Shown piece by piece: positions 1 through 63,312 of a DNA stretch of 64,000 bases. Each line of letters starts with the position of its first letter. The stretch's first letter is position 1. Location of the stretch: the NCBI GenBank assembly GCA_012295275.1, contig CM022670.1, positions 5,332,001 to 5,396,000 of the forward strand, given 5' to 3'. Under the pieces are notes generated by a model. It saw only the letters and a program-made list of their open reading frames with translations. It was not told the origin of the DNA and did no database searches. The stretch is from Chrysomallon squamiferum. Its lineage: Eukaryota; Animalia; Mollusca. The position numbers and the translations under genes were made by a program.

Positions 1-831
1 ACGTTTTCCGTATGAGTATACGATACAAAAATACGTTACTTTCTTCGTTTTATTTCTTCATTGTTTAATCTGTGATATAATTATCTTCTAACTGTATAAG
101 GTTTTGTTAAATTTGGAAAATATCAATATCTGTTGCTAAAATTAAGAAAATTTATTGAAAAACAGTTTGATTATTTGAAATCAGTTAAAACGGATAATGA
201 CACTTCGGATACGAGTACACGGGTTTATAAATATTTCTTTGTGACCTTGTTTTGTGACGAGAAAACTCAACAATATGAGAGAGTTGAAAATAAGTAAACC
301 TTTATTGGGCACTCATAACTTATTACAAATATTTCATATTTCAAAGCCTTTCTTCAGTGTTCAAAAACTGAATTATTGGGACATTTTTCATCTTGTATGT
401 TTAAGGTATCTTTAATATTAGTCTTTCTAACTGTCATTTGAAAACTATTAATGACAGTTAGTAGAATATGTTGTGCTGTCATTAAACATTTATTTATTTA
501 TTTCTGTTGTGTATGGATTCTTCAATATCCCGCTTATTTTGTTTCCGACGATTTCATATTAGTGTTATAATGACCAAAATCAGGAATCTTTATAATAGAC
601 TAATGTTTTAACTTCAGAAAGACGCCGAAACGTAGATACAAGTTTAGTACTTTTTGGCCTTAATTCTAAAAATGTATCTGTGCCCTACACAGGCACAGAA
701 AGACCATTATTAAAAATACTTAAACCTACGAAGTAACTCAGTAGTAATATTGTACTCAAGACTGAAACCATCACTTACACTGTCTAGGTGTCGTCTAGAT
801 GCCACTATCTGGAAAGGCAAAACCATAATAG

Positions 832-833
832 TG

Positions 834-903
<70 letters not shown>
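832..903. repeat. (TAA)n microsatellite
   Basis: Pure ATA/TAA run; counterpart near 16805-16872. Confidence 0.95.
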
Positions 904-904
<1 letters not shown>

Positions 905-1481
905 TGTTACAGCAAACCTTAATGGAACAAAATTTCAATACATTTCATTATAAAGGGCGAGGTTTAAGGGCGTGTTCATGACGTTGAACACCCTTTCACT
1001 GAGTAGCCGTTTTAATATTGTGATAAAGTAATCTTAGACATTCGTTTATTAATTAACCATTCATAATACTACGATAAAATTAAAATCGTTTATTAAAGAT
1101 ACTGTATATTGAACGAATCGATGAACCAATGTTTAATACAGTATCAAAACTGTATTTTGAACTAGAATATTTCCTGGGATGGTTTGCAGTGACTGTAAAG
1201 TACACGGACATAGTGGTAAGTTTACAAATGTCAGATAATTCAATATAGAATTTACACAGTGAGTGAGTAAAGTACAGATTACGTTATAACGAGTAGCGGC
1301 GTTATATCAGTACACGGTATACAGAAAATACGATATCAGAGGAAATAATGAATGAATGAATGTGTGTATCTGTATACATTAATTATGAACGGATTATTAG
1401 TAAAAGTAATAATAGCAGTAGTAATAATAACCGTAGTAGTGCTAATAGTAGCAGGAGTAGTTGTAATAGTAGTATTAGTAA

Positions 1482-1540
<59 letters not shown>

Positions 1541-2119
1541 TCAATAGTAGAATCGGTAGTATAGTAATAAATATAACAGTTCAATATATTACAATACAGT
1601 GCAGTACAATTCAATACAGTACAGTATTAATACAATATCACGTTTAAAATGTATATATAAGTCGAATCATATTTCCTTAATCTTTTAATAAAGTAGTATT
1701 ACTAGTAACAGTTATATATTTCCATTGAACCATCCAGTAGAACAGCTTTTTAAAATAAATATTTCTAGATCATATCTAAATTTACCACTAGGAAAGATAA
1801 TAATTTAAATAGCGTTATGAGTAGATAATTACATTGTTTCCCCACTAGGTAATTTAAATACGTAATTGATAGAAAATTAAAGGTAAACAGCTTTCAGTGT
1901 ATAATAATATAACACATCACAATATCTAATTTAAACAATAAAAAATAATCCTAAAATATTAAATAAACGAAGATTAAAATTAAAAGTTACACTTGACGAA
2001 GCTGTGTTTTAAACAAAATAGAAGAAATAATGATTTGAGTAGATAAAGTCATTGCAAGCTGTCTGGATATCACTATTAATAGCGAGCTACATTTAGTAAT
2101 TCACCGTCTGTCTTGAGCA

Positions 2120-2153
<34 letters not shown>

Positions 2154-3988
2154 CTGGTCATCGTGGGAAGAAATTTAGATTTGATTTAAACTGGCGTTGA
2201 TGTTTACACTTGTGCAAACCCACCAGGGACTGGTTCCGATTCGCCAGCACTGGAATACTGTGTGGTAGACACTAGTTCATTAACTCCGCTGTGAAGGGCG
2301 GTTCTGGGAACTGTATCAAGTGGAGGGGCGTATCATTGCCAAGCATGAATACGGTGATGTGACCGCAGTGACTAAAACTGGTGATGTTATGTTGTCGTAC
2401 ATTCTAAACAATAATGTGACAGTAAAGAATTTTGTCATCAGCGATTTCACATAGTTAAAATACATTTAAAAATGCATGACGATAGTAAAAGATTTTTCAG
2501 GATTTGTTTTCCTTTTTGAAAAAAACTTTTGGTCTCTGGTAACACTTATTGAAGGCAGTATTATTATTGTTAATGGGATTAGAACTGAAGAGAACGGTTT
2601 TGTTAATTGCCCGAACTGGCGTCGAGATATCGTCAGTAAGCAAGCAAAAAATAGCAGAGATTTTAAAGTTTTGTGTTTAAATTAAATAAACGAGTGTTTA
2701 GTTGCACTTCATTAAATAAACATTCCGCTATTATCATCAAATGTATTGTCACGTTTTCTATTACTGAAATCTGTTTCTCTTTGTAATCTGCCTGTTTATC
2801 GGTCTGTCTGTCTGTCTGTCTGTCTATCAGCTTATATATCTATCAATCTGTCTATTTGTGTCTCTGTATGTCTATCCCTCTGTCTCTGTCTCCTCTCTGT
2901 TCAGATATTTTCGACTTATTTTTATGTCTAAGTAACCATGTAGATTTTTAATTTCCTTCATCCTTCACGCCTTCAATAACAAACAAACAAACAAACAAAC
3001 AGATAAATAAATAAACAAAATAATAAAATAAATTTTAAATATAAAGTGAAACAAAATGCAAAGAAGGAATCCTCTCAAAACGTCATTTACAAAACAGTTT
3101 ATATGGTAAGTAAAAAATTAAGATTCATATATTCAAAAGTGATTCAAAACTATTTACCCACAAACGTTTGCTTTTAAGAAGATAAAAAGTCAAAGAACTT
3201 CTCTTTGAAAACACAAAATCTGTATTAGTTGTTTACCAAGAGACCAGCTTAGCGGAATGCTATTTACCAACCCACACACAGAAAAAAAAATTCAAACGTT
3301 TCACAAGCCGAGTAAAAACAAAATAAATGTAAAACGAAAATGTACTAAAACTGAGTATACATTTGTCTACGACGACAACAATATTTTTCATCTCCCAGAG
3401 CCAGCCGACGCCGTCGTGGCTAATGTTGCTAATTGAGTTTACGTGTTTGACGCTTGCATGTTCCCAAGCGCCAGCTACGTGGCGAATCTAACTTATATTT
3501 AAACGTATCTTCCAGATTCTCAACATACGTAAATTAATGCGTGTTCTTTTCACGTGGCTTTGGGGATTTAAGCTGTAACACATTTGGAAGTTTGGATAAT
3601 CTTGTGAGACTTGTTGCTGTATATTTACTTATACTTATTAGAATGTAAAAGGACGTAACGACTGCAGTGATCTGAAAGTAAATTTGTGTTCTTCGTAGAA
3701 ACAAAAAAATATATATGCTAATAGCTTTCAGTTGTATCTGTTTCACTAAGTCTACAGAAAAGAAGCTGTATAATGTGTGGTTCAGATTTAAATATGAAAT
3801 ACTACGTTCTGTCACATCAACTCTGCGATTAGATATTAAAGACGTTATTCAAAAGTTTAGAATTCTATTTATTTATATCTGATTATATCTTGTTGTCTGT
3901 TTTATGTTCCGTACAAGCTAAGTTTTAAACAACTATTCTTGTAACATAGTGATAATGTAACAGGCTAGATGTAATTATTTAATTCAGT

Positions 3989-4099
<111 letters not shown>

Positions 4100-4782
4100 C
4101 CCCCTCTGTCTGTCTGTTTGTCTGTGTTATATCTATAAGTTAATATATATGTATCTAATTTAATTTGCAGACTGTTCAAATATCTTTGTCTATATATCTT
4201 TTTTAAATGTTGTTTATAAAGTCACTAATGTATTAAGGATTATATTTCTGATACTATACACATATATATGAACATAAATATAATAAAACATTTAAATAAA
4301 TGTCTTTATAAAATAACGGAATATAAAATAACATTAAAGGTTAATAAGAATATAATTAAACACTTAAATTTAAATAAATAAATAAAATATTTATCGACAG
4401 TTGAACACATTATATATATATATATATAACCGTAAAAAAAAAGAAGAAGAAATATATATATATATACTCTTTTCAACCTTTCTGTGATTTCATTATTACG
4501 GATTGGCTAACTTTTTATATGCCAGTCCTGTGCTGGTTGGAACGGGGATAAATCCAAACGACACTCTATATGTAACAAATCGTTGTCTAAGCGAATTCTC
4601 AACTAGAGACCGCGCCTTCGTATTGAATATCTATTAATATAATGATCAATATCTGTGATACCAAATAATTTAAAAGAAACCCTGCAAAGTATTAAGATAT
4701 ATTTACGTGTAAAAATATTAACTTACGATTTAACTTTAATTAAAAAAAGCCTCAAACGTAGGTTATTAACATGAGAAATTAT

Positions 4783-4820
<38 letters not shown>

Positions 4821-7800
4821 GGTTTTGATTTCTGATATTGATAGGGCTTCTCTTTACGATTAATAACTATTAGTAAAGATATATATATATATATATATTT
4901 AAAAAAAAAATTAAATTAATCGCTTTATCAGTGAACCGTATAAGAAATTATAATTACTCGTTATTTGTAAGTAGTAAAATAATTTCCGTTTACGACGAAC
5001 ATTATTTCACTTTTCCCGAACCGCTTATAAAAATCCGGGAGTTTTTTCCCTTGATTACACACAGCCAGCGTGTACTTATCTAAATCTCTTCTTACTTTAC
5101 TTGATACCAAATCCAAATGTTTAGTCAGTATAGTAATTATCGTATTATCAGTATCATAACCAAGCCGAGTTTGTTGTTTTTCGTTTCATCGATCCTTGAC
5201 CGTGTTTTGATCAAGCTTACGGTACTCAAAGATGTTCTGGTTAAGCCTTTATTAGTATATGACTATTTTTTTTGTCTACGTTTCAGTAAGTTATGTACAC
5301 GTAAGTAAAGAAGAAGAAATAATTATAACCAAACCGTTAAGTATAATCTTTATTATGGGTATGATAATGATTTTATGGCAGGATGATACTTCATTATTTT
5401 TAAACTTATTTTAACATGTTCGCCATTATTTTTGCATTCCTTTTAATATATTTTGTCCATGTTTTTTTTGTCTTTTAGTTTGTTCATTGCAGCGTACCCT
5501 TGAACATACTTAGTATAGAAAGGATGCTTTATAAATATGGTATAATGACAATAATACATATGTTCGTATATGTGTCTGTTTATGTAGGTGTGTGTGTGTG
5601 TGTGTGTGTATTTATGTGTATGTATATGTATATATATGTATGTACGTATGCGTTTGTAGTTATATGTGTGTATATGCAGATTTATGTATGTATCTCTATG
5701 TGTGTATGTACGTGTTTGTGTATATGGAGGTGTATATGCGTGTGTATCTTTTTACAGGCGTATGCGTAGGTGTGTGCGTGTTTAATATTTGCTTTTTTAG
5801 TAGATTATTTAAAACATAACGCTTTTTTTGTTGTTGTTATTTTTTTTTTTTTTTATATAAAATAAACTTTAATAAATTAGTCATTTACTCACAGAATATG
5901 AACATAAATTGTATTTAATGAACAGCATAATGTAAAACTGAATAGCACAAGCTTTTAATGCAGCTGAAACTGACGTGAGTAAATGTACAGAAATAGCTTT
6001 ACGTTCTGTTACCAGATGCTCACCAGAAAACTGGGTAATTAGAACGTTCATTTTCACAAGATATTTTGTATTTACAAATAAATAAAATAGTAATTTTGGT
6101 GAATATGGTGATGATGGTGGTAGTAAAAGTTGTAGTAGTAGTGGTGGTGGAGGTGTTGGTGTTGGTGGTGGCAGTGGTGGTTGTAGTAGTGGTAGTATTA
6201 ATTACCGTAATAATAATAATGATGGTTATGATGATGATGATGAACATACTGGCGCTACTTTTACAAAAGCAGTAAGAAAAGCGACAACTTCAGTAACAGC
6301 AAATACAACAACAACAACAATAGTAATAATAATAATAACGACGACAACATTAATAATAATAACAAGAACAGTAATAATAATAATAATAATAGCAATAAAT
6401 GTTGACACGTGTCTGTGGTTTTTTCTATACAGAATTCATTGACAAATTATTTTTGATTTGTGAGTATTCCATAAATAAATGAAAGAAAAATGAATTTCAC
6501 ATCTTTTCCGTATGAACAGTTATTGTGTACTATATATGTTTTATTTTTGAAGTTTATGTTCAGTTGTCACTAATATTAAATGACTAAATGTTGACACTAA
6601 CAACAGTTAATACATAAAACCTGTTTAGCCGACCTTAAATGAAAAACATTTATAATTTCCCGGGATCTTGATCCAGAAAATTTCACAATAAAATTTCACC
6701 TTAATTATGATTCTCATTACTTAAGGTGGTAATATTGTAAACTGCAATAACATTGAAAAATAAATAAACAAGAAAAGACAGATTAATTTAATTCTTTTTA
6801 TTGTTCATTTGCTTGTCCTACTTCTATTCGTTTATTTCTTCTTTCTTTTTTGTTTCCTTTTTTTCTTTTTATTTCTCGCTCTTCTTCTGCGACACCATAA
6901 CAACGCCATCATGTAAAAACACTCAAAGAATTTGGAATTGCAAACGTATGATGCATACGTTAATAAAGTATTTGCATTCGGAGGAAGTACAAATTAGTGC
7001 CTGGTTAGTGGAAAACGGTAAAGGGGAGCCCTTATGCCGAGGACAAATTTGATTATAAATCCTCACTGTCCTTCTGGATTAGGCGGACCTTTTACCCTCC
7101 AATCACTCGGGCCAGTTTGAAATCTCCTCACAATTAATCTGATTTATCAGTGTTTGCACACTTCGGCGATAATGTATGAATCAAGACAGATCTTAGACTC
7201 TGATCGAATCAAATCTATTGCAGTTTTCGAGTACGTCATTACTTACAAGGTTAACTAGGAAAGTTTCGGGTAGCCAAGTTTGAACTGCTGTTATGGGATA
7301 AAGTATCGGCGCTGGAAATGCACTTAGCTGTTCCGAAAGACAAAGCTGATTTCTTTGAAATCGCTTGCGGTTGAAAGGTAGCCAGATTTTCTACGAATTC
7401 GTGGGAGTCTATCAAAAGGATTGATGTTTCTATAAACGTATCAGTTTTAATCTGATGTTTACAAACTCAGATCTAGATTTTCTATAATAATTTTGTTATG
7501 GATGTTAAAGAAAAGATTCGTATCTAAGAGATCGTTGTCTTTCAGAAACTGAAGATATTTACCACCTCAAAACCGACACATCTGCAGTAATGACATTATG
7601 GATGATTAATAATAGGGACATTTTTTTTTTTTTTTTAGAAATCTGTGTTTCCAGGAAACTGTACAAATTTAGTTTATCAAGAAAAGATAAAACCTGAAAT
7701 TTCGATAATGATATTATCACGGAGATTTCAGGAAAAGCGTATTTTTAATAAAATCACTGTTTTCAAGAAATTTGAAATTTATCAGCTCAATATTTTCGTT

Positions 7801-7854
7801 TTTATAGTGCTTGTATTATGTGATGTCTCTTTAAAAGATAAAATTTTACCTGCC

Positions 7855-7887
<33 letters not shown>

Positions 7888-8194
7888 TTTATTATGTACA
7901 TTAATTTTACAAAAACTCTTTCTATGGAATTATTTGTTCCAAGAAAATTTTAAACATTTATTAGTTTGGAACTGAAATTTCTTTGTTTTATTATAGAAAT
8001 TAATGAGAAATTGATGTTTCTATGAAACTGATACCTCAGAAGCTGATTTTTTTTCTAAGAAAATGTTATTTGCATGTGAGGAATCAGTAATAAAGGATAA
8101 TACAGATATAGATTTAATGATGCCAATTAAAACAAATTTATAAATATGGAGGCAAAAAAAAATATTGTCGACCGCCAGAGTCCGACTTGCTCTG

Positions 8195-8246
8195 TGCCGG
8201 AACCCGGGATTGAACCGGGGGCCTTTAGATCTTCAGTCTAACGCTC
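8195..8246 (-). pseudogene. trnF-GAA: tRNA-Phe(GAA) interrupted by a Tx1 insertion (tRNA positions 22-73 remain on this side)
   Basis: 52 nt identical to the 3' part of the intact copies, then a poly(T) at 8247 in place of TCCCAACTGAGC. The equivalent locus at 24109-24181 is intact. Confidence 0.93.
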
Positions 8247-8491
8247 TTTTTTTTTTTTTTTTTTTTTAGTTTATAAACTAATATTTATTAACTTGACATG
8301 CTTTAAAAAGTGATTTTTATGAAATAAGATATTATGAAACAATATTTAATTTACATGTTATCGAATGATGTAATTTAATTCGTTAGGAATTTAAATAATA
8401 AAATTAATAAATGAATTGACAAAAACTTACTGTATTGACATTGGATACTATAAACTAATATTAATTTTATGGTCGACATCACGTCTTGTTC

Positions 8492-8495
<4 letters not shown>

Positions 8496-8587
<92 letters not shown>
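8496..8587. repeat. (AG)n microsatellite inside transduced DNA
   Basis: Pure AG run. Confidence 0.95.
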
Positions 8588-8589
<2 letters not shown>

Positions 8590-8952
8590 AGATTTTTTTT
8601 TTTTTATCGTCATAGATCTTTCTTTCCGTTATGAAAGATAAGCATATCAGTTTGAAATAAATGATTAAGTCAATAAATAAATAAATTACTAGATTCTTTA
8701 ACTTTATTTTTGCGATAACTAATTGTATATAGCATGAAACAACAAAGAAAAAAAAATCTCCCAGAAAACAAAACCAATATCGTTTTATCGAATTTTAATC
8801 ATATTAAAATAAAAGTTTCTGTATTATCGATAAATCCATCTTGATGTGAGTGGGTGGTGTTTTTTCCGATTTTCTATTTGTCTCTCTCACTCAAAAAATA
8901 AATAATAATAATAATAAAAAACAATAGAAAAATAACAAGAAAGAAAGAATGA

Positions 8953-9001
8953 AGGTTTCGGCGAGGCTCGAACTCGCGACCTTCTGCGTGTTAAGCAGAC
9001 G
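8953..9001 (-). pseudogene. trnV-AAC: 3' fragment (positions 25-73) of tRNA-Val(AAC), transduced
   Basis: Minus strand CG-TCTGC-TTAACAC-GCAGA-AGGTC-GCGAG-TTCGAGC-CTCGC-CGAAACC-T: anticodon arm with AAC, T arm with B box, acceptor 3' strand. Preceded directly by poly(A). Confidence 0.88.
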
Positions 9002-9027
9002 TTTTTTTTTTTTTTTTTTTTTTTTTT

Positions 9028-9142
9028 AAATGTAAATGATGGTTTATTTATAGCTATTAAAATTAATTATAATTGTAAAAAATATAAACGAGGTTTCGGC
9101 GAGGCTCGAACTCACGACCTTCTGCGTGTTAAGCAGACGTGA
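9028..9142 (-). other. 3' transduction 1: tRNA-Val 3' part plus 63 bp flank, ending in AATAAA (9043-9048), 15 nt, then poly(A) (9002-9027)
   Basis: Lies between the element's own poly(A) (9143-9154) and a second poly(A). Confidence 0.82.
9091..9142 (-). pseudogene. trnV-AAC: 3' fragment (positions 22-73) of a second tRNA-Val(AAC) locus, transduced
   Basis: Minus strand TCACG-TCTGC-TTAACAC-GCAGA-AGGTC-GTGAG-TTCGAGC-CTCGC-CGAAACC-T. It has one SNP and a different 3' flank relative to 8953-9001. Confidence 0.88.
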
Positions 9143-9364
9143 TTTTTTTTTTTTATCTTTATTAGTATAATCACCAGTTGTACACAATTAAAATAACATT
9201 ACAGCTGTAAATAACAATAACAAAAACTATTTCCTCTCACACACTCAGTCACACTCATTCACACTCACATGCATGCATACTTATTTATTTGGAATATTCA
9301 TATATATTTACAGTATTTTATAGTATTAATTCTTTTATCCATTTCCATGATTTATCTATATTGA

Positions 9365-12300
9365 TTATTTGTAGCTTTCCAAAGGATATTTGAAAATAAG
9401 TATGTCGTCTTTTAGTTCTAGGAAAATATTGTTCTTAACATATTTGTTAATAAAAATTGAAAGTTTGTTTTGAATACGATATTGATTTAGAATGATTTTA
9501 AAGCACTGATACATATAATTTCTAAAAAAAAATGTATTATATTGATATTTGTTCCTTTCATTTGAGCTATTACACGCCTTTTGAACACTGTTATTCTATA
9601 AATTGAAAGAATAATATTAATAAATTCTATTGTACTATTTTCAATTTTGAGATAACATCCAAATATTAATAATCTTTTTAATTGTTCTAGAGAAAACCCT
9701 GTTTTCTTAAATATATAAATACATATTTCATGAAAGATTGATATTAATTCCTTCAATTCTTCACAATACAAAAATAAATGGCACAAATCTTCATCATCCT
9801 TCAAACACACTGGACATACACTAGATGAGATTTTGCCATATTTATATAATTTGTTATATGTATATATTATATGATGAACTATTCTAAAATCTAAGTCTAT
9901 AAATTCAGTAAATTTATCACTATAGTGTATCCATTTCCAAACTGGTCTCCAGAATATATTAAAACCAAGCTCATTCCATTTTTTTCTACACAAGTTGGTG
10001 CTTTTAAAGTTTTTTAAAATTAAAATAGAATAAATTATTTTAGCTGTAAATTTATTGACATTTATCATTTCATTATTCTGAAACAAAAATAAATCTTTAT
10101 TAGAAGTTAATTTTTTTTTAGCATTTCTGTTAATAGAACTTTTCCATTCATCTGGAAGTGATTTCTTAATAACATTGTAAGCTATATAAATTTGGTTTTG
10201 GATAATTCTGGAGATTTTTCATGAATAATTTCTACAATAGCTGTAAAAGGAAGAAAACCTGGTATTACTTCATAAGCAATATCAGCCACTTTGACTATTC
10301 CACTTTTTATAAAAGAACTAAATAATAATAATTTGTTTTTATATTTGATGAATGGATTTTGAAAAAGTGGCTGAGACAATATTTCATCTGTATCAAGTGG
10401 GAAATTACGTTCTCCATTATTAACATAGTCCCAAGCTGATAACATTTCAGCATAAAAGGGATTGATAACTTTTAAAGCTTCTTTACTGTATACTATTTTA
10501 AAAATGTCATAATTTAGATTCATATTCATATATTTTTCAAGAAATATTGACATTGTATATTTCCACACATTTTTAAAATTATTATCAAAATATTTCTTTA
10601 ACATTTTTATTCGAAAAGCCATTTTCTTTAATGAAATATCTTGAATATTTAGTCCACCCGACATTTTATTTCCAATTATTGTTGAATATTTTATTAAAGA
10701 TGTTTTCCTTCCCACATAAATTTACAAAATAATTTATGAATTTCATTTTCTACCCAATTTGGTACATTTATTGTGCTAATGATATACCACAGTCTAGATG
10801 TTAATAAAGTATTCCATACTTCAGCTTTTCCGTGCAAAGTAAGTTTCCTTTGACTCCATAAGTTAATTAGATTAGACATTTTAGCTAATTTATTTTTCCA
10901 GTTCAAAGTTTCACATAATAGTTTATTTGGTCCTAAATATATACCTAGAATTTTAACATAGTTTTTATTTATTGATATTGGAATGTTAAAGGATAAGTTT
11001 TCAATCATGGTTTTACCAAGATAAAGTACTTCTGACTTATCTACATTGACTTTTGCCCCTGTAGCACTACAATACATATTTATTGTATTAAAAACATTTT
11101 CTACTGACTGAGCATCACAGACAGTTACTGTAGTATCATCTGCATGCTGAAATAATAAAGAATTAAGTTCATTTGTTATCCTAATTCCATTCATGCTATG
11201 TCTTTTTTAATTAAATTATTTAAGGGTTCAGCTACAATAACATAAAGCATCATTGATATTGGACATCCTTGTCTAACCCCTCTTGTAATATTAAAAAAAG
11301 GTGTTAAATGTCCATTAATTTTTACACAACTTTTAATATTATTATATAGTATTTTAATCCACTTTATAAAATTATCACCAAAATTGAATTTTTTCAAAAC
11401 TTTTAAAATAAAACTATGTGATACTCTATCAAATGCTTTCTCTTGATCTATTTTAACTATATACCCTTCTGTATTATTTAACTCGACAATATCTATAATA
11501 TCTCTTACTGACATAATATTGTCAGCAATATCTCTTCCTTTTACACAACAGGTTTGTTCTGATGAAATAATAGTTGACATTACTTGTTTAAGACGATTTG
11601 CAAGAACTTTAGCAATAATTTTATAATCTACATTTAAAAGGCTGATAGGTCTGCTTTATCTCCTTTTTTCTTGTAAAATAAACTAATTACTCCTTTTTTC
11701 ATACTGCGTGACAACATTTCTTCTTTCTGAATTGACATAACTACTTTATGAAAGAAATTTTAAAATTTTCCCAGAATTTAACATAAAATTCTACTGTTAG
11801 ACCATCCAGACCAGGTGATTTATTTCTATTCATTTCTTTTAAAGCTTCAGTTAATTCTTCAATTGTAATGTCTTTCTCACAGTTTTCACTTTCAGATTCT
11901 TTTAGTTTATTTGATATTAAATTTATTATTTCTTCCTGTTTAATAATATCTACATTTTCTTGCGTAAATAATTTTGAATAAAAGTCATAAGCATATTGTA
12001 ATATATCTTCTGTTTTTCTTGTTAATCCATTTACTGTTTTTAGCTCTTTAATAGAATTTGATTCTTGTTTTGATTTTTCTAAACTGAGAAAAAAAAATGT
12101 GGTATTTCTATCCATATCTAGATTCCAATGAGCTTTAGATCTCAAAATAGCACCATTACATTTAGATCTCTCAATTAATTTTAATTTTTCTTCTAAAATT
12201 TGTATGTTACTCAAATCATGATGATTATTTACAGCTAGTTTAGCATATTCTCTTTTCAAAGCATTTTGTATATTATAATATTTTTCGTTATCTGATTTTC

Positions 12301-13240
12301 TCTTTTTTATTGCAAAATTTCTTGCACATGTTTTCATTTTATATTTTAAGTTGTCCCACCAAACACTAGGTTCAGTCTGTAACAAAGGACACTCAGAAGC
12401 ATTATTAATAACTTCAATAATAGCTTTACAAAAACTTTCATCTTTCAACAATTCATTATTAAAGATCCAAATACCTTGACCTCTCTCTACATGAGAAAAA
12501 TCTATTTTAAGTGATAAAAAATTGTGATCACTAACCGAGGTATAGGATATGTATACATTACTTATAAACTGCAATAAATTTCTAGAAATTAAGAATAAAT
12601 CAGTTCTTGACTGTTTTATAATTTTTTCAACTATTTGAGATCTAGTAAATTGCCTTTTATCTGGATTTCTGTGTCGCCAAATATCAACTAAATTATAATT
12701 AAAAATAACTGACTGTAATTCATTACTACTTTTTATATTAAAACTTTTATTATTAATGCCCAAATCTAAATTAGGATCTAAAATGTCATTAAAATCTCCT
12801 GCCATTATTGTATTTTTTAAATCCACAAATTTACATAATCCTTTAAAAAATAAAATTCTTTCTTCAATATTATTTGGTGCATATACATTTATAAAACTGT
12901 ATTCTTCTTCATCTATTTTCGTATTAATTTTTAAAATCCTGCCTTCAGTGTCGCAACTATTAAATGTAAACTTATAAGGACATTCTTTTGATACCAGTAT
13001 TGCTACACCCCTTCTTTTTTTATTTGGACAATTATTATAAAATATATTTCCTTCCCATAAATGTTTATATCTCTCAATGAAGTCATTATCCCAAAATGTT
13101 TCCTGTAGAAAAATAATATTTGCATGTTTACTTTTAAATGTTGCAAAAACTGAATTTAATTTCTCAATATCTCTCAGTCCGTTTACATTTATAGACAAGA
13201 TCATAGTTAGAAGAAGAAAAATTAGTGAACCATTACCCAT
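9365..13240 (-). pseudogene. Tx1 ORF2 (APE endonuclease, reverse transcriptase, CCHC), frameshifted into several pieces
   Basis: APE motifs SINVNGL, FLQET, NVYAPN, AGDFN, SDH. RT motifs KSPGLDGL, RPISLLNVDYK, DQEKAFDRVSH, GVRQGCPIS, QHADD, LGIY. C-terminal CPVC..EDLCHLFLYC. ORF pieces 11741-13240, 11191-11580, 10694-11194, 10182-10715, 9487-10086; terminal YPLESYK* at 9365. Confidence 0.93.
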
Positions 13241-13320
13241 TTTTAAAATATTCTATATCTTGTCTATATCCTCCCCCCCATACTCATTCATTACCCTGGC
13301 AACACTTTCTCTCACACTTT

Positions 13321-14413
13321 TCATGTGTGCTGCTTGTCTCTTTTTTGTTTTCTATTTTCTACCAAGCTCCACAGTTTTTCTTCTGATGGACGCTTGATCA
13401 ATCTCGTTCGACGCTTTGTTTTACTCTGCTTACTATTTTCTGCTTCGATGGTTCCAGCTTCCTTGTTAGTAATTTTCACTTTGGTGTTTTTATCAGGGGA
13501 TTTTCTTGGTTTTTCTCCATTTTCTGATTTTTGTTGTTCCTTGTTGATTTCCATTTCTGTTGTATTTATCCTCTGGATACTTTCTGCTTCAATTTCTTTT
13601 TTCTCCTTTGATTTTACATTATATTCCATACCATCACTGTCACTGTCGCTGTTTTTTGTTCATCGCTGTCATACTCTGACCAACACTCACATTCATCCTC
13701 TTTGTTTCCACACTTTTCACACAGAAATATGTTCGGGCAGTTTCTAGCAAAATGTCCTTTTTTTGTTTACAGTTATGACACCTTATATTTGGACAGTCTT
13801 TCAACAAATGATTATCCGCCATGCAGTTGTAACATACTTTTATTTGATTGTCATGTAAAACACGAAAATATTTTATTCCTTCATAAGTCCTAAATTTCAT
13901 TGAGTATGGTAAACTTTTTATTCCGGGTGGAAATTTCACTCTCACGTATCTTGTTCCATCTGCAATTTTTGTCCCTTTGTATAGCCTTCTATAAATTGGT
14001 GATAAAATTTCTATTTCCATTTGTTTCAATTTTTCTTCAATTTCTTCATCTTCAATGTAGGCAGGCAAGTGCAAAAAGGAAACTACTACAGTTTCAGATT
14101 TCAAAATTCTCGCCTTTATTTTTAGACCTTTCAATTCTGTTTCATCAATTTCCGTAATCATTCTCGCTTGTATAATATCTTCTAGTGTTATTTCATAAGA
14201 GTCGGATTCTTTCGGTACGCACGCTTTTATCACATCACCCACCTGGCCACTTACAAAATCTATCATGTCGCCTGCTGAAATTTTCTTGTTATCTTCTACA
14301 TTTACAATCACAGTGCATTCTTTTTTAAAAACATTTTTTCTCATTCCTTCTTTTTTTAAATTCATATCTTTCATCTTTTCTTCGTAATTTTCAGATTCTT
14401 CCGCCCAAGACAT
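13321..14413 (-). pseudogene. Tx1 ORF1 (gag-like, two CX2CX4HX4C zinc knuckles), one frameshift in an A run near 13760
   Basis: Starts MSWAEE; contains VVSFLHLPAYIEDEEI, GTKIADGTRYVRV and CYNCMADNHLLKDC. The second knuckle CHNCKQKGHFARNC is restored if the A7 run is read as A5. The lysine/glutamate-rich tail ends at 13321. Confidence 0.88.
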
Positions 14414-14441
14414 AATACTTAGTTTTACAACCAAACCTTTC

Positions 14442-14641
14442 NNNNNNNNNNNNNNNNNNNNNNNNNNNNNNNNNNNNNNNNNNNNNNNNNNNNNNNNNNN
14501 NNNNNNNNNNNNNNNNNNNNNNNNNNNNNNNNNNNNNNNNNNNNNNNNNNNNNNNNNNNNNNNNNNNNNNNNNNNNNNNNNNNNNNNNNNNNNNNNNNNN
14601 NNNNNNNNNNNNNNNNNNNNNNNNNNNNNNNNNNNNNNNNN
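14442..14641. other. Assembly gap (200 N)
   Basis: Run of exactly 200 n. Confidence 1.
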
Positions 14642-15288: not shown

Positions 15289-52177
<36,889 letters not shown>

Positions 52178-61582: not shown

Positions 61583-61655
61583 GCCGGAATAGCTCAGTTG
61601 GGAGAGCGTTAGACTGAAGATCTAAAGGCCCCCGGTTCAATCCCGGGTTCCGGCA
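61583..61655 (+). tRNA. trnF-GAA: tRNA-Phe(GAA)
   Basis: Identical 73-nt sequence. Confidence 0.96.
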
Positions 61656-62174
61656 CAGAGCAAGTCGGACTCTGGCGGTCGACCAATTTTTTTTTTCTTA
61701 AACACAGATATTATATTATATATATTTTTTGACTTCTTCATTTTTGTTTTCTTTCTTTCTTGATGGTTTTCGGTTTTAAATAGAGACGTCGGATTTTGTA
61801 ATCTCGGAATATCTCTTTTTGATTTAATTTAATTTGAAACAGTAAAATCATTTGATGACGTCACATGGACATTACAAAGAGACTGTTCCGGCGCCATGTT
61901 GCTGTTAAATGTGTGCTTCTCTCTTAAACCCAGAATTGCGTTCCACGTACAGACTGCTGAACAGTACTAGCTATAACGTTATCATCTGGTATATCACAGT
62001 TTACACAATAATAACAAAATATTCCGTATTGAAAAACTCATTGATGACAAGTATTCGTGATTCGAAATATACAGCAAAAACTTTTGACAGAATGATAAAT
62101 TGTCATTTTGCTATATTGTTTATTTCTGTTGTTAATTACGAGACATACTCAGATACTGATCATTCGTTGTCAAA

Positions 62175-62268
<94 letters not shown>

Positions 62269-62932
62269 TCACTCATCAGTGCTGACTGCTATGTAATCAT
62301 TTGACTTTTCTTTATTTCGAGTCTGTTACGAAGCTTATGGTGTGAATAGTTTTAAAGGTGAAATCATGAAGTGAAAAACATGTCCATCTATACATCCGTC
62401 TGAGCAGAATGTCTCAGTATATTGTTATTAGATATTCTTTTTGTCAGTTGTTATCCTTGAAACATCATTCCTTGTGTATTATTATTATTATTTTCAAATC
62501 CAATGAATTATTTTTATATAAGTTATAATAATTATATTAATGTGCAGTTTAGTGGTTTTAACAGAAAACTGTTATATGAAGTTGGGATATGCATCATTTG
62601 TTGTGTGTTTAACGCACAATAAAATGATCATTATTAATTAAATTAAATTTAAAAGACAATATTAGAGTCTGAAATTCCGATTGTTGTAACACCAGTATTT
62701 CTAATAGACAAATTCGTATTTAATGGGATTGCATTATTACTATGATTATAGAATATATATTATGAATAAAATATGGTGTAAATTATATTTTGTAAATTGT
62801 ATTAAATATATATTCTGAATATAAAATTTACAATAAATAAATAAATAAATAATATGCTTACAAATAATAAATCTACATATCATTATCGCTTCCGTCAAAG
62901 CAAATATTAAATACAGATCTACGCAATTGTCG

Positions 62933-63005
62933 GCCGGAATAGCTCAGTTGGGAGAGCGTTAGATTGAAGATCTAAAGGCCCCCGGTTCAATCCCGGGTTC
63001 CGGCA
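62933..63005 (+). tRNA. trnF-GAA: tRNA-Phe(GAA), C32T variant
   Basis: TTAGA-TTGAAGA-TCTAA anticodon arm; otherwise identical. Confidence 0.93.
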
Positions 63006-63312
63006 CAGAGCAAGTCGGACTCTGGCGGTCGACAATATTTTTTTTGCCTCAATATTTATAAATTTGTTTTAATTGGCATCATTAAATCTATATCTATATT
63101 ATCCTTTATTACTGATTCCACACATGCAAATAACATTTTCTTAGAAAAAAAAAATCAGCTTCTGAGGTATCAGTTTCATAGAAACATCAATTTCTTATTA
63201 ATTTCCATAATAAAAGAAAGAAATTTCAGTTCCAAACTAATAAATGTTTAAAATTTTCTTGGAACCAATAATTCCATAGAAAGAGTTTTGTAAAATTAAT
63301 GTACATAATAAA

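Follow-up and report, generated by a model that had tools for sequence, protein, structure and literature searches.

Probable 3' transductions in the tail of a LINE inserted within a tRNA-Phe gene

A LINE that lies within a tRNA-Phe gene of the window analysed here (the whole stretch of DNA, 64,000 nt, to which all coordinates refer) carries beyond its own A-tail two segments, each consisting of the 3' part of a tRNA-Val gene, flanking DNA and a further A-run. It is very probable that these segments were acquired in two 3' transductions by this LINE family. A strict serial order, from a first Val locus to a second and from there into tRNA-Phe, is the simplest reading of the sequence of this one tail and is favoured with appreciably less assurance. 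The original prediction had interpreted the tail as a record of LINE 3' transductions into tRNA genes; this is well supported for both Val-flank segments, where poly(A) signals, T-runs, public contigs and a bare copy of the element speak for it, while the serial order is retained only as the simplest reading. What is encountered is a known transduction mechanism in a new setting, that of a LINE targeting tRNA genes, in a single case.

Copies of target-specific LINEs are usually near-identical and lie in near-identical genes, leaving their ancestry unreadable. Tags of the kind described here, if read as such, name the earlier targets and give a lineage across two tRNA isotypes, and would thereby supply the missing ancestry. 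Furthermore, the occurrence of one family in two isotypes at positions 22-25 makes the choice of site, whether by sequence or through the Pol III machinery, testable from genome data.

Organization of the tail

Read 5' to 3' on the minus strand, the tail runs in the order LINE 3' end, A12, tRNA-Val 22-73, 63 nt, A26, tRNA-Val 25-73, 685 nt, A21 and tRNA-Phe 22-73. Each segment was re-read, and all the coordinates originally given for the tail were reproduced. The element terminates in AATAAA-GAT-A12 (9143-9163), with the AATAAA (9163-9158) placed 3 nt before A12 (9143-9154), and this signal together with the short A-tail is likely to form a weak terminator. The first tRNA-Val(AAC) 3' part (9142-9091; 52 nt, positions 22-73) contains the B box and a T at position 50, and is followed by the AT-rich flank 1 (9090-9028; 63 nt), which has a T6 run near its start and an AATAAA (9048-9043) 15 nt before A26 (9027-9002), the putative tail of the first transduced RNA. 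The second tRNA-Val(AAC) 3' part (9001-8953; 49 nt, positions 25-73), again with the B box, differs from the first at one letter, position 50, and leads into flank 2 (8952-8268; 685 nt, with a (TC)n tract), whose AATAAA (8289-8284) lies 16 nt before A21 (8267-8247). A21 forms the 3' junction of the insertion and would be the tail of the last transduced RNA, and beyond it lies the 3' part of the target tRNA-Phe(GAA) gene (8246-8195; positions 22-73).

The assignment of the two parts to tRNA-Val is based on their stems and AAC anticodon, read directly; in the search of the window the Val halves had no Rfam match, and Rfam gave a weak score for the Phe half alone. Three further Rfam matches, on AT-rich DNA, were regarded as chance. 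An internal A13 (8593-8605) was weighed as a possible additional junction but dismissed, since no AATAAA precedes it and no tRNA half comes after it. Position 73, the last of each Val half, is T in both (9091 and 8953); valine tRNAs usually have A there.

The layout of the tail is not due to chance, as the two Val halves are near-identical and each stands directly after an A-run. The window has 28 A-runs of at least 12 letters, and an AATAAA lies 10-30 nt upstream in both distal tails and in 1 of the 26 others, the background being such a signal at about 6% of all window positions. When the 63 nt before each distal tail were shuffled, AATAAA was found at frequencies of 0.064 and 0.088, jointly about 0.006. 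The feature by which L1-type 3' transductions are recognized, namely a stretch foreign to the element that separates its A-tail from another A-tail preceded by a poly(A) signal, is present.

On the transcribed strand, T-runs of at least four letters occur twice in flank 1 and 11 times in flank 2. The first T-run is found about 10-25 nt past the tRNA end, and T5-T9 runs about 10-40 nt past it, in both flanks. Pol III would terminate at such T-runs and Pol II reading through would not, and therefore read-through by Pol II is the likely source of the transcripts. In the mechanism we propose, the element's weak signal, an AATAAA 3 nt from a short A-tail, would fail to stop Pol II, which would also ignore the T-run terminators of Pol III; cleavage would follow 15-16 nt beyond the first AATAAA downstream that could serve, and target-primed reverse transcription would then copy the read-through RNA into another tRNA gene. 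The first round would have led from Val locus 1 to Val locus 2, and the second from Val locus 2 to Phe. Each junction follows an A of the target, which is what pairing of the A-tail with a T at the nick would lead one to expect.

The LINE and its coding regions

The L1-group (Tx1-like) LINE body occupies 9155-14441 on the minus strand, with its 5' end lost in an assembly gap. The ORF1 frame (13640-14641) contains a CCHC knuckle, CX2CX4HX4C, read directly, and had no Pfam match. ORF2, from about 13240 to 9416, has the arrangement EN-RT-zinc finger, with Pfam matches to Exo_endo_phos, RVT_1 and, weakly and below the curated cut-off, zf-RVT. Compared with the closest full-length relative (P0001; 69% identical to the element over the EN region), ORF2 is broken into seven pieces by six frameshifts, and, if these were inherited, the intermediate could have moved only with assistance in trans. 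Almost all family contigs, and a second copy in the window, lack the frameshift near 9524.

Searched against PDB, P0001 matched human L1 ORF2p with an E-value of 5e-88 and R2 at best with 2e-15, and this far closer relationship to L1 ORF2p establishes membership of the L1 group. A CCHC zinc knuckle in ORF1 marks the Tx1 clade, and membership of that clade is likely, judging from ORF1 and the target preference in the sequence. Of the designation as a Tx1 element in the original prediction, the L1 group is therefore upheld by the ORF2p match, and the Tx1 clade as likely only. In an EN-region tree of 86 sequences (63 from DNA and 23 chosen proteins, with no named Tx1 or L1 reference among them), the element stands beside unnamed and Mytilus proteins, and apart from a U2-flanked metagenome locus (L022). 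Its nearest named relatives are mussel proteins at 37-39% identity.

Empty site and second copy of the element

The element runs into a 200-N assembly gap (14442-14641), in which its own 5' end and the front half of the target gene are lost. Neither the 5' junction nor any target duplication is therefore present in the sequence, and only the 3' side of the insertion is delimited. Across the gap, 1-8247 of the window aligns to 15967-24161, with the alignment ending precisely at the A21 junction. There the duplicate has an intact tRNA-Phe gene (24109-24181, minus strand). The expectation of an empty site without the insert at about 24160 was thus confirmed by the intact gene, although the site probably does not represent a separate locus: with 96 substitutions in 8155 aligned bases (1.2%), the copy is probably the other haplotype, retained as an unpurged overlap, rather than an independent locus. 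A recent duplication may be an alternative origin of the copy. If it is the other haplotype, the long insertion would be polymorphic and heterozygous.

A second, bare copy of the element (35773-36336, minus strand) is about 470 bp long, 5'-truncated and 98.4% identical, and lies inside another tRNA-Phe gene, of which positions 1-24 remain on the left and 24-73 on the right, with a target duplication of 0-2 nt. It ends in A20 (compared with A12 on the long copy) and has no Val tail, which argues that the Val segments are not a 3' UTR of the LINE family. Since it occupies the same tRNA-Phe site, the family appears to hit this site repeatedly.

The second copy and the gap also bear on a different history, in which two separate transductions, one from Val locus 1 and one from a bare element in Val locus 2, were joined here and did not follow each other serially. 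The joining would have occurred by a template switch, with oligo-dT cDNA from the internal A-tail re-annealing to the tail of the second RNA, or by stacking at the A-tail/Val junction. Such a history predicts exactly the same 3' sequence, and the 5' side, which could reveal stacking, lies in the gap. As to precedents, tandem insertion at one target is described for Utopia-1_NVit (PMC4640811) and SINEU-3 (PMC3706591), and template jumps are named as a mechanism (PMC4494074). However, two read-through RNAs would have to meet, or the target would have to be re-cut with its 5' half displaced; the duplication of 0-2 nt at the second copy is too short to rebuild a site, and the window contains no stacked copies. 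We therefore consider this history rather unlikely, and serial transduction through two Val loci is the reading carried further here.

Choice of the target site

The four junctions start at tRNA positions 22 (Val), 25 (Val), 22 (Phe) and 24 (Phe), and each comes after an A of the target (A21, A23 or A24), which is seen in three cases and deduced from the conserved A21 in one. Within the window, both family copies (2 of 2) are found at positions 22-24 of tRNA-Phe. Common to all four junctions is their position, 2-5 nt past the A box. With only 21 of 52 letters in common between the 3' parts of Val and Phe, the sequence following the nick is unlikely to determine the site, which is probably chosen relative to the upstream A box. 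These four junctions suggest that the endonuclease may read the A box or may be placed by Pol III factors.

A wider generalization, which we regard as tentative and somewhat doubtful, is that this LINE lineage would recognize a position (the A box or the bound Pol III factors) and not the sequence at the nick, would insert directly 3' of the A box whatever the tRNA isotype, and would routinely carry with it the 3' half of the gene it last occupied. If this were true, the tails would form an ordered, genome-wide record of jumps between tRNA isotypes, and fragments with only a B box would be seeded into other tRNA clusters.

The window as a whole is a tRNA-Phe cluster with 13 intact and 2 broken genes. 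All the tRNA-Phe genes have a conserved 5' TGTCG leader and a near-invariant 3' trailer of 27-28 nt before a T-run; the trailer folds as a small hairpin (-5.9 kcal/mol), and the flanks diverge beyond it. An inverted paralogue pairs 34427-35823 with 61605-63045 (16 substitutions in 1395), and its tRNA-Phe gene at 61583-61656 is the empty counterpart on the 3' side of the truncated second copy. The tRNA-Phe gene at 62933-63006 has GATTGAA in place of GACTGAA, a substitution in the region of the anticodon loop.

Flanking sequences in public contigs

Read evidence was obtained from the short contigs of 4 of the 17 listed public runs, from three studies, compared with 8600-9700 (the proximal 1101 bases); the runs come from one organism, and about half of the sampled window words are present in them. 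In three of the four runs (X1, X2 and X5, from three studies), a contig connects a Val 3' end with flank-2-like DNA corresponding to the proximal half of flank 2, the Val side comprising 36, 21 and 35 letters, respectively; joints with a likeness below 95 or with such short sides may come from repeats. At the X1 joint, the intervening letters match 8916-8944 of the window at 26 of 29 places, by eye. Flank-1-like contigs likewise abut Val ends, with indel variants, and the flank-2 contigs comprise several variants, mostly 90-98% alike, as paralogues. At Val position 50, most of the depth carries the letter of the second copy, that of the first copy amounting to about 2%, 1%, 0.1% and 0% in the four runs. 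In X5, two loose contig ends follow the element's A-tail.

Contig depth, which gives no copy number, was about 2000-3100 for the main element contigs in X1 and about 25-240 for the flank-2 contigs across runs, a difference of one to two orders of magnitude. Being tied to a Val 3' end, and at a depth far below that of the element, the flank-2-like DNA is therefore not a 3' UTR, and not a SINE of high abundance either. The very high depth in low-complexity DNA at 8637-8710 was disregarded. The findings fit a view in which a family of tRNA-Val genes has related spacers, like the Phe genes of the window, and both flanks are DNA that naturally lies downstream of such genes. The Val-linked contigs, being paralogues with a short Val side and with the Val 5' half outside them, could also be other transduced copies. 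The exact source Val loci, a poly(A)-free continuation at either cleavage point and an intermediate copy were not seen among these short contigs (8600-9700). For the claim that the flanks lie downstream of tRNA-Val elsewhere, the contigs thus offer paralogous Val-linked flanks in three of the four runs, and not the exact sources.

These depths help in weighing a history of nested insertions, according to which polyadenylated tRNA-Val retrocopies or a Val-headed SINE entered the Phe gene first and the LINE came later into a Val head. Several features would agree with such a course of events: cutting of Val heads at 22-25 is evident for this LINE family, the T at position 73 of the Val units is not the usual letter of a valine tRNA, the gap conceals the 5' side, and the Val 5' half is absent from the visible sequence. 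Against it, Pol III would be halted by the T5-T9 runs about 10-40 nt past the tRNA end, the two "bodies" resemble each other in neither length nor sequence, the flank depth is low, unlike that of a SINE family, and three stacked events would be required. A high-copy Pol III unit with shared body and tail, as expected of a tRNA-derived SINE, was not found. Nested insertion is accordingly regarded as improbable, and the low depth, the Val-linked contigs and the unrelated bodies contradict the case that had been named as refuting transduction, in which the flanks are 3' UTRs or SINEs.

The possibility that reads of several element copies and tRNA loci were stitched together at A-runs during assembly also deserves mention. 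The contig breaks inside the element, the region appears in duplicate across the gap, and the six frameshifts could be base-calling errors, the one near 9524 being missing from nearly all family contigs. Moreover, no contig spans any tail junction among the short contigs of the four runs, in which the second Val half and A26 were skipped as repeats; the lack of cover over these two parts, arising from repeat skipping, is no evidence either way. An artefact of this kind would nevertheless have to place a correctly spaced AATAAA before each A-run and, after it, a tRNA half starting at the same structural site, and the flanks are low-copy DNA; we judge it highly improbable. Transduction, on the other hand, is well supported by the spacing of the poly(A) signals, the T-runs, the Val-adjacent flank-like DNA, its low depth and the bare copy without the tail.

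Comparison with known systems

A multigenerational cascade of 3' transductions by human L1, in which the first tag is kept and a second is added, is described in PMC13009371. As in the tail reported here, the tag of the first source is retained next to a second tag from the intermediate, each with its own poly(A). Human L1 is scarcely specific for sequence and carries arbitrary DNA as tags, whereas every tag here starts with the downstream half of a tRNA gene; and the intermediate was identified in the human cascade, whereas none was seen here among the contigs compared. Single L1 transductions with two poly(A) tails (PMC5668948) and ordinary L1 transductions (PMC5668948, PMC4866827, PMC13103737, PMC13141329) have also been documented, and the accessible part of bioRxiv 10.1101/2024.08.27.596794 offers nothing further for the reading of the tail.

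Amongst target-specific LINEs, R7Ag (18S rDNA), with a short tail, and R1Bm (28S rDNA) gave 3' transduction in assays (PMC7265360). They resemble the element here in having an AP endonuclease and a specific target, and in copying sequence past a short poly(A) tail; however, those events were single rounds in rDNA during retrotransposition assays, and the present one is natural, with apparently two rounds and two tRNA isotypes. Tx1-clade elements with small-RNA gene targets include Dewa (tRNA-Leu spacer), Keno (U2) and Mutsu (5S), and the clade also comprises Tx1L and Tx1-Mar (PMC3706591, PMC4494074). They share with the element here two ORFs, an AP endonuclease, a poly(A) tail and a multicopy small-RNA target, but Dewa lies in the spacer and the present element within the tRNA gene itself. 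Neither insertion into the D arm of two tRNA isotypes nor transduced target halves are reported in the accessible text of these two papers.

Insertion inside tRNA genes is described for the LINEs NeSL-1_TV (Pro), LIN15_SM (Arg) and LIN25_SM (Glu) (PMC4640811), and for Dada DNA transposons at positions 8-13 or the anticodon (PMC8869645). Like the element here, these use tRNA genes as safe multicopy landing sites. They differ in that NeSL-1_TV and the LIN elements are restriction-like-endonuclease LINEs and Dada are DNA transposons, with a single isotype or another position as target. The accessible portions of PMC4640811, PMC8869645 and PMC5035012 contain no case of transduction by an inserter into tRNA genes. 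The suggestion that such a structure had not been described agrees, for LINEs that target tRNA genes, with a search of the openly available main-text literature, which revealed no nested transduction by such a LINE; it does not apply to nested two-tag cascades in general, these being known from human L1 (PMC13009371). Lists of invertebrate Tx1 families in tRNA genes are reportedly given by Kojima and Fujiwara in 2004 and in Repbase Reports.

Distant relatives

Relatives were sought with an alignment of 16 close proteins in 9 of 64 parts of a metagenome collection, and the best 80 of the 526 loci obtained are 28-41% identical. No B box followed the listed A-runs (up to five per locus) in any of the 54 loci with sequence past ORF2, and ARAGORN detected no tRNA in the 60 scanned of the best 80 loci; hence tRNA targeting is not extended beyond this LINE family. 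No relatives were found in viral contigs, and the Val pattern had no match in viral or prokaryote contigs.

Other small-RNA genes were encountered at the ends of such loci. By Rfam, L001 (6046-6205) ends in U1 and L022 (5815-5977) in U2, a Keno-like site. The 3' ends of L002 and L016 are followed by what we take to be a U1-like 5' end, with no Rfam hit. It is possible that some of these distant relatives are U1-targeting LINEs that insert at two different positions.
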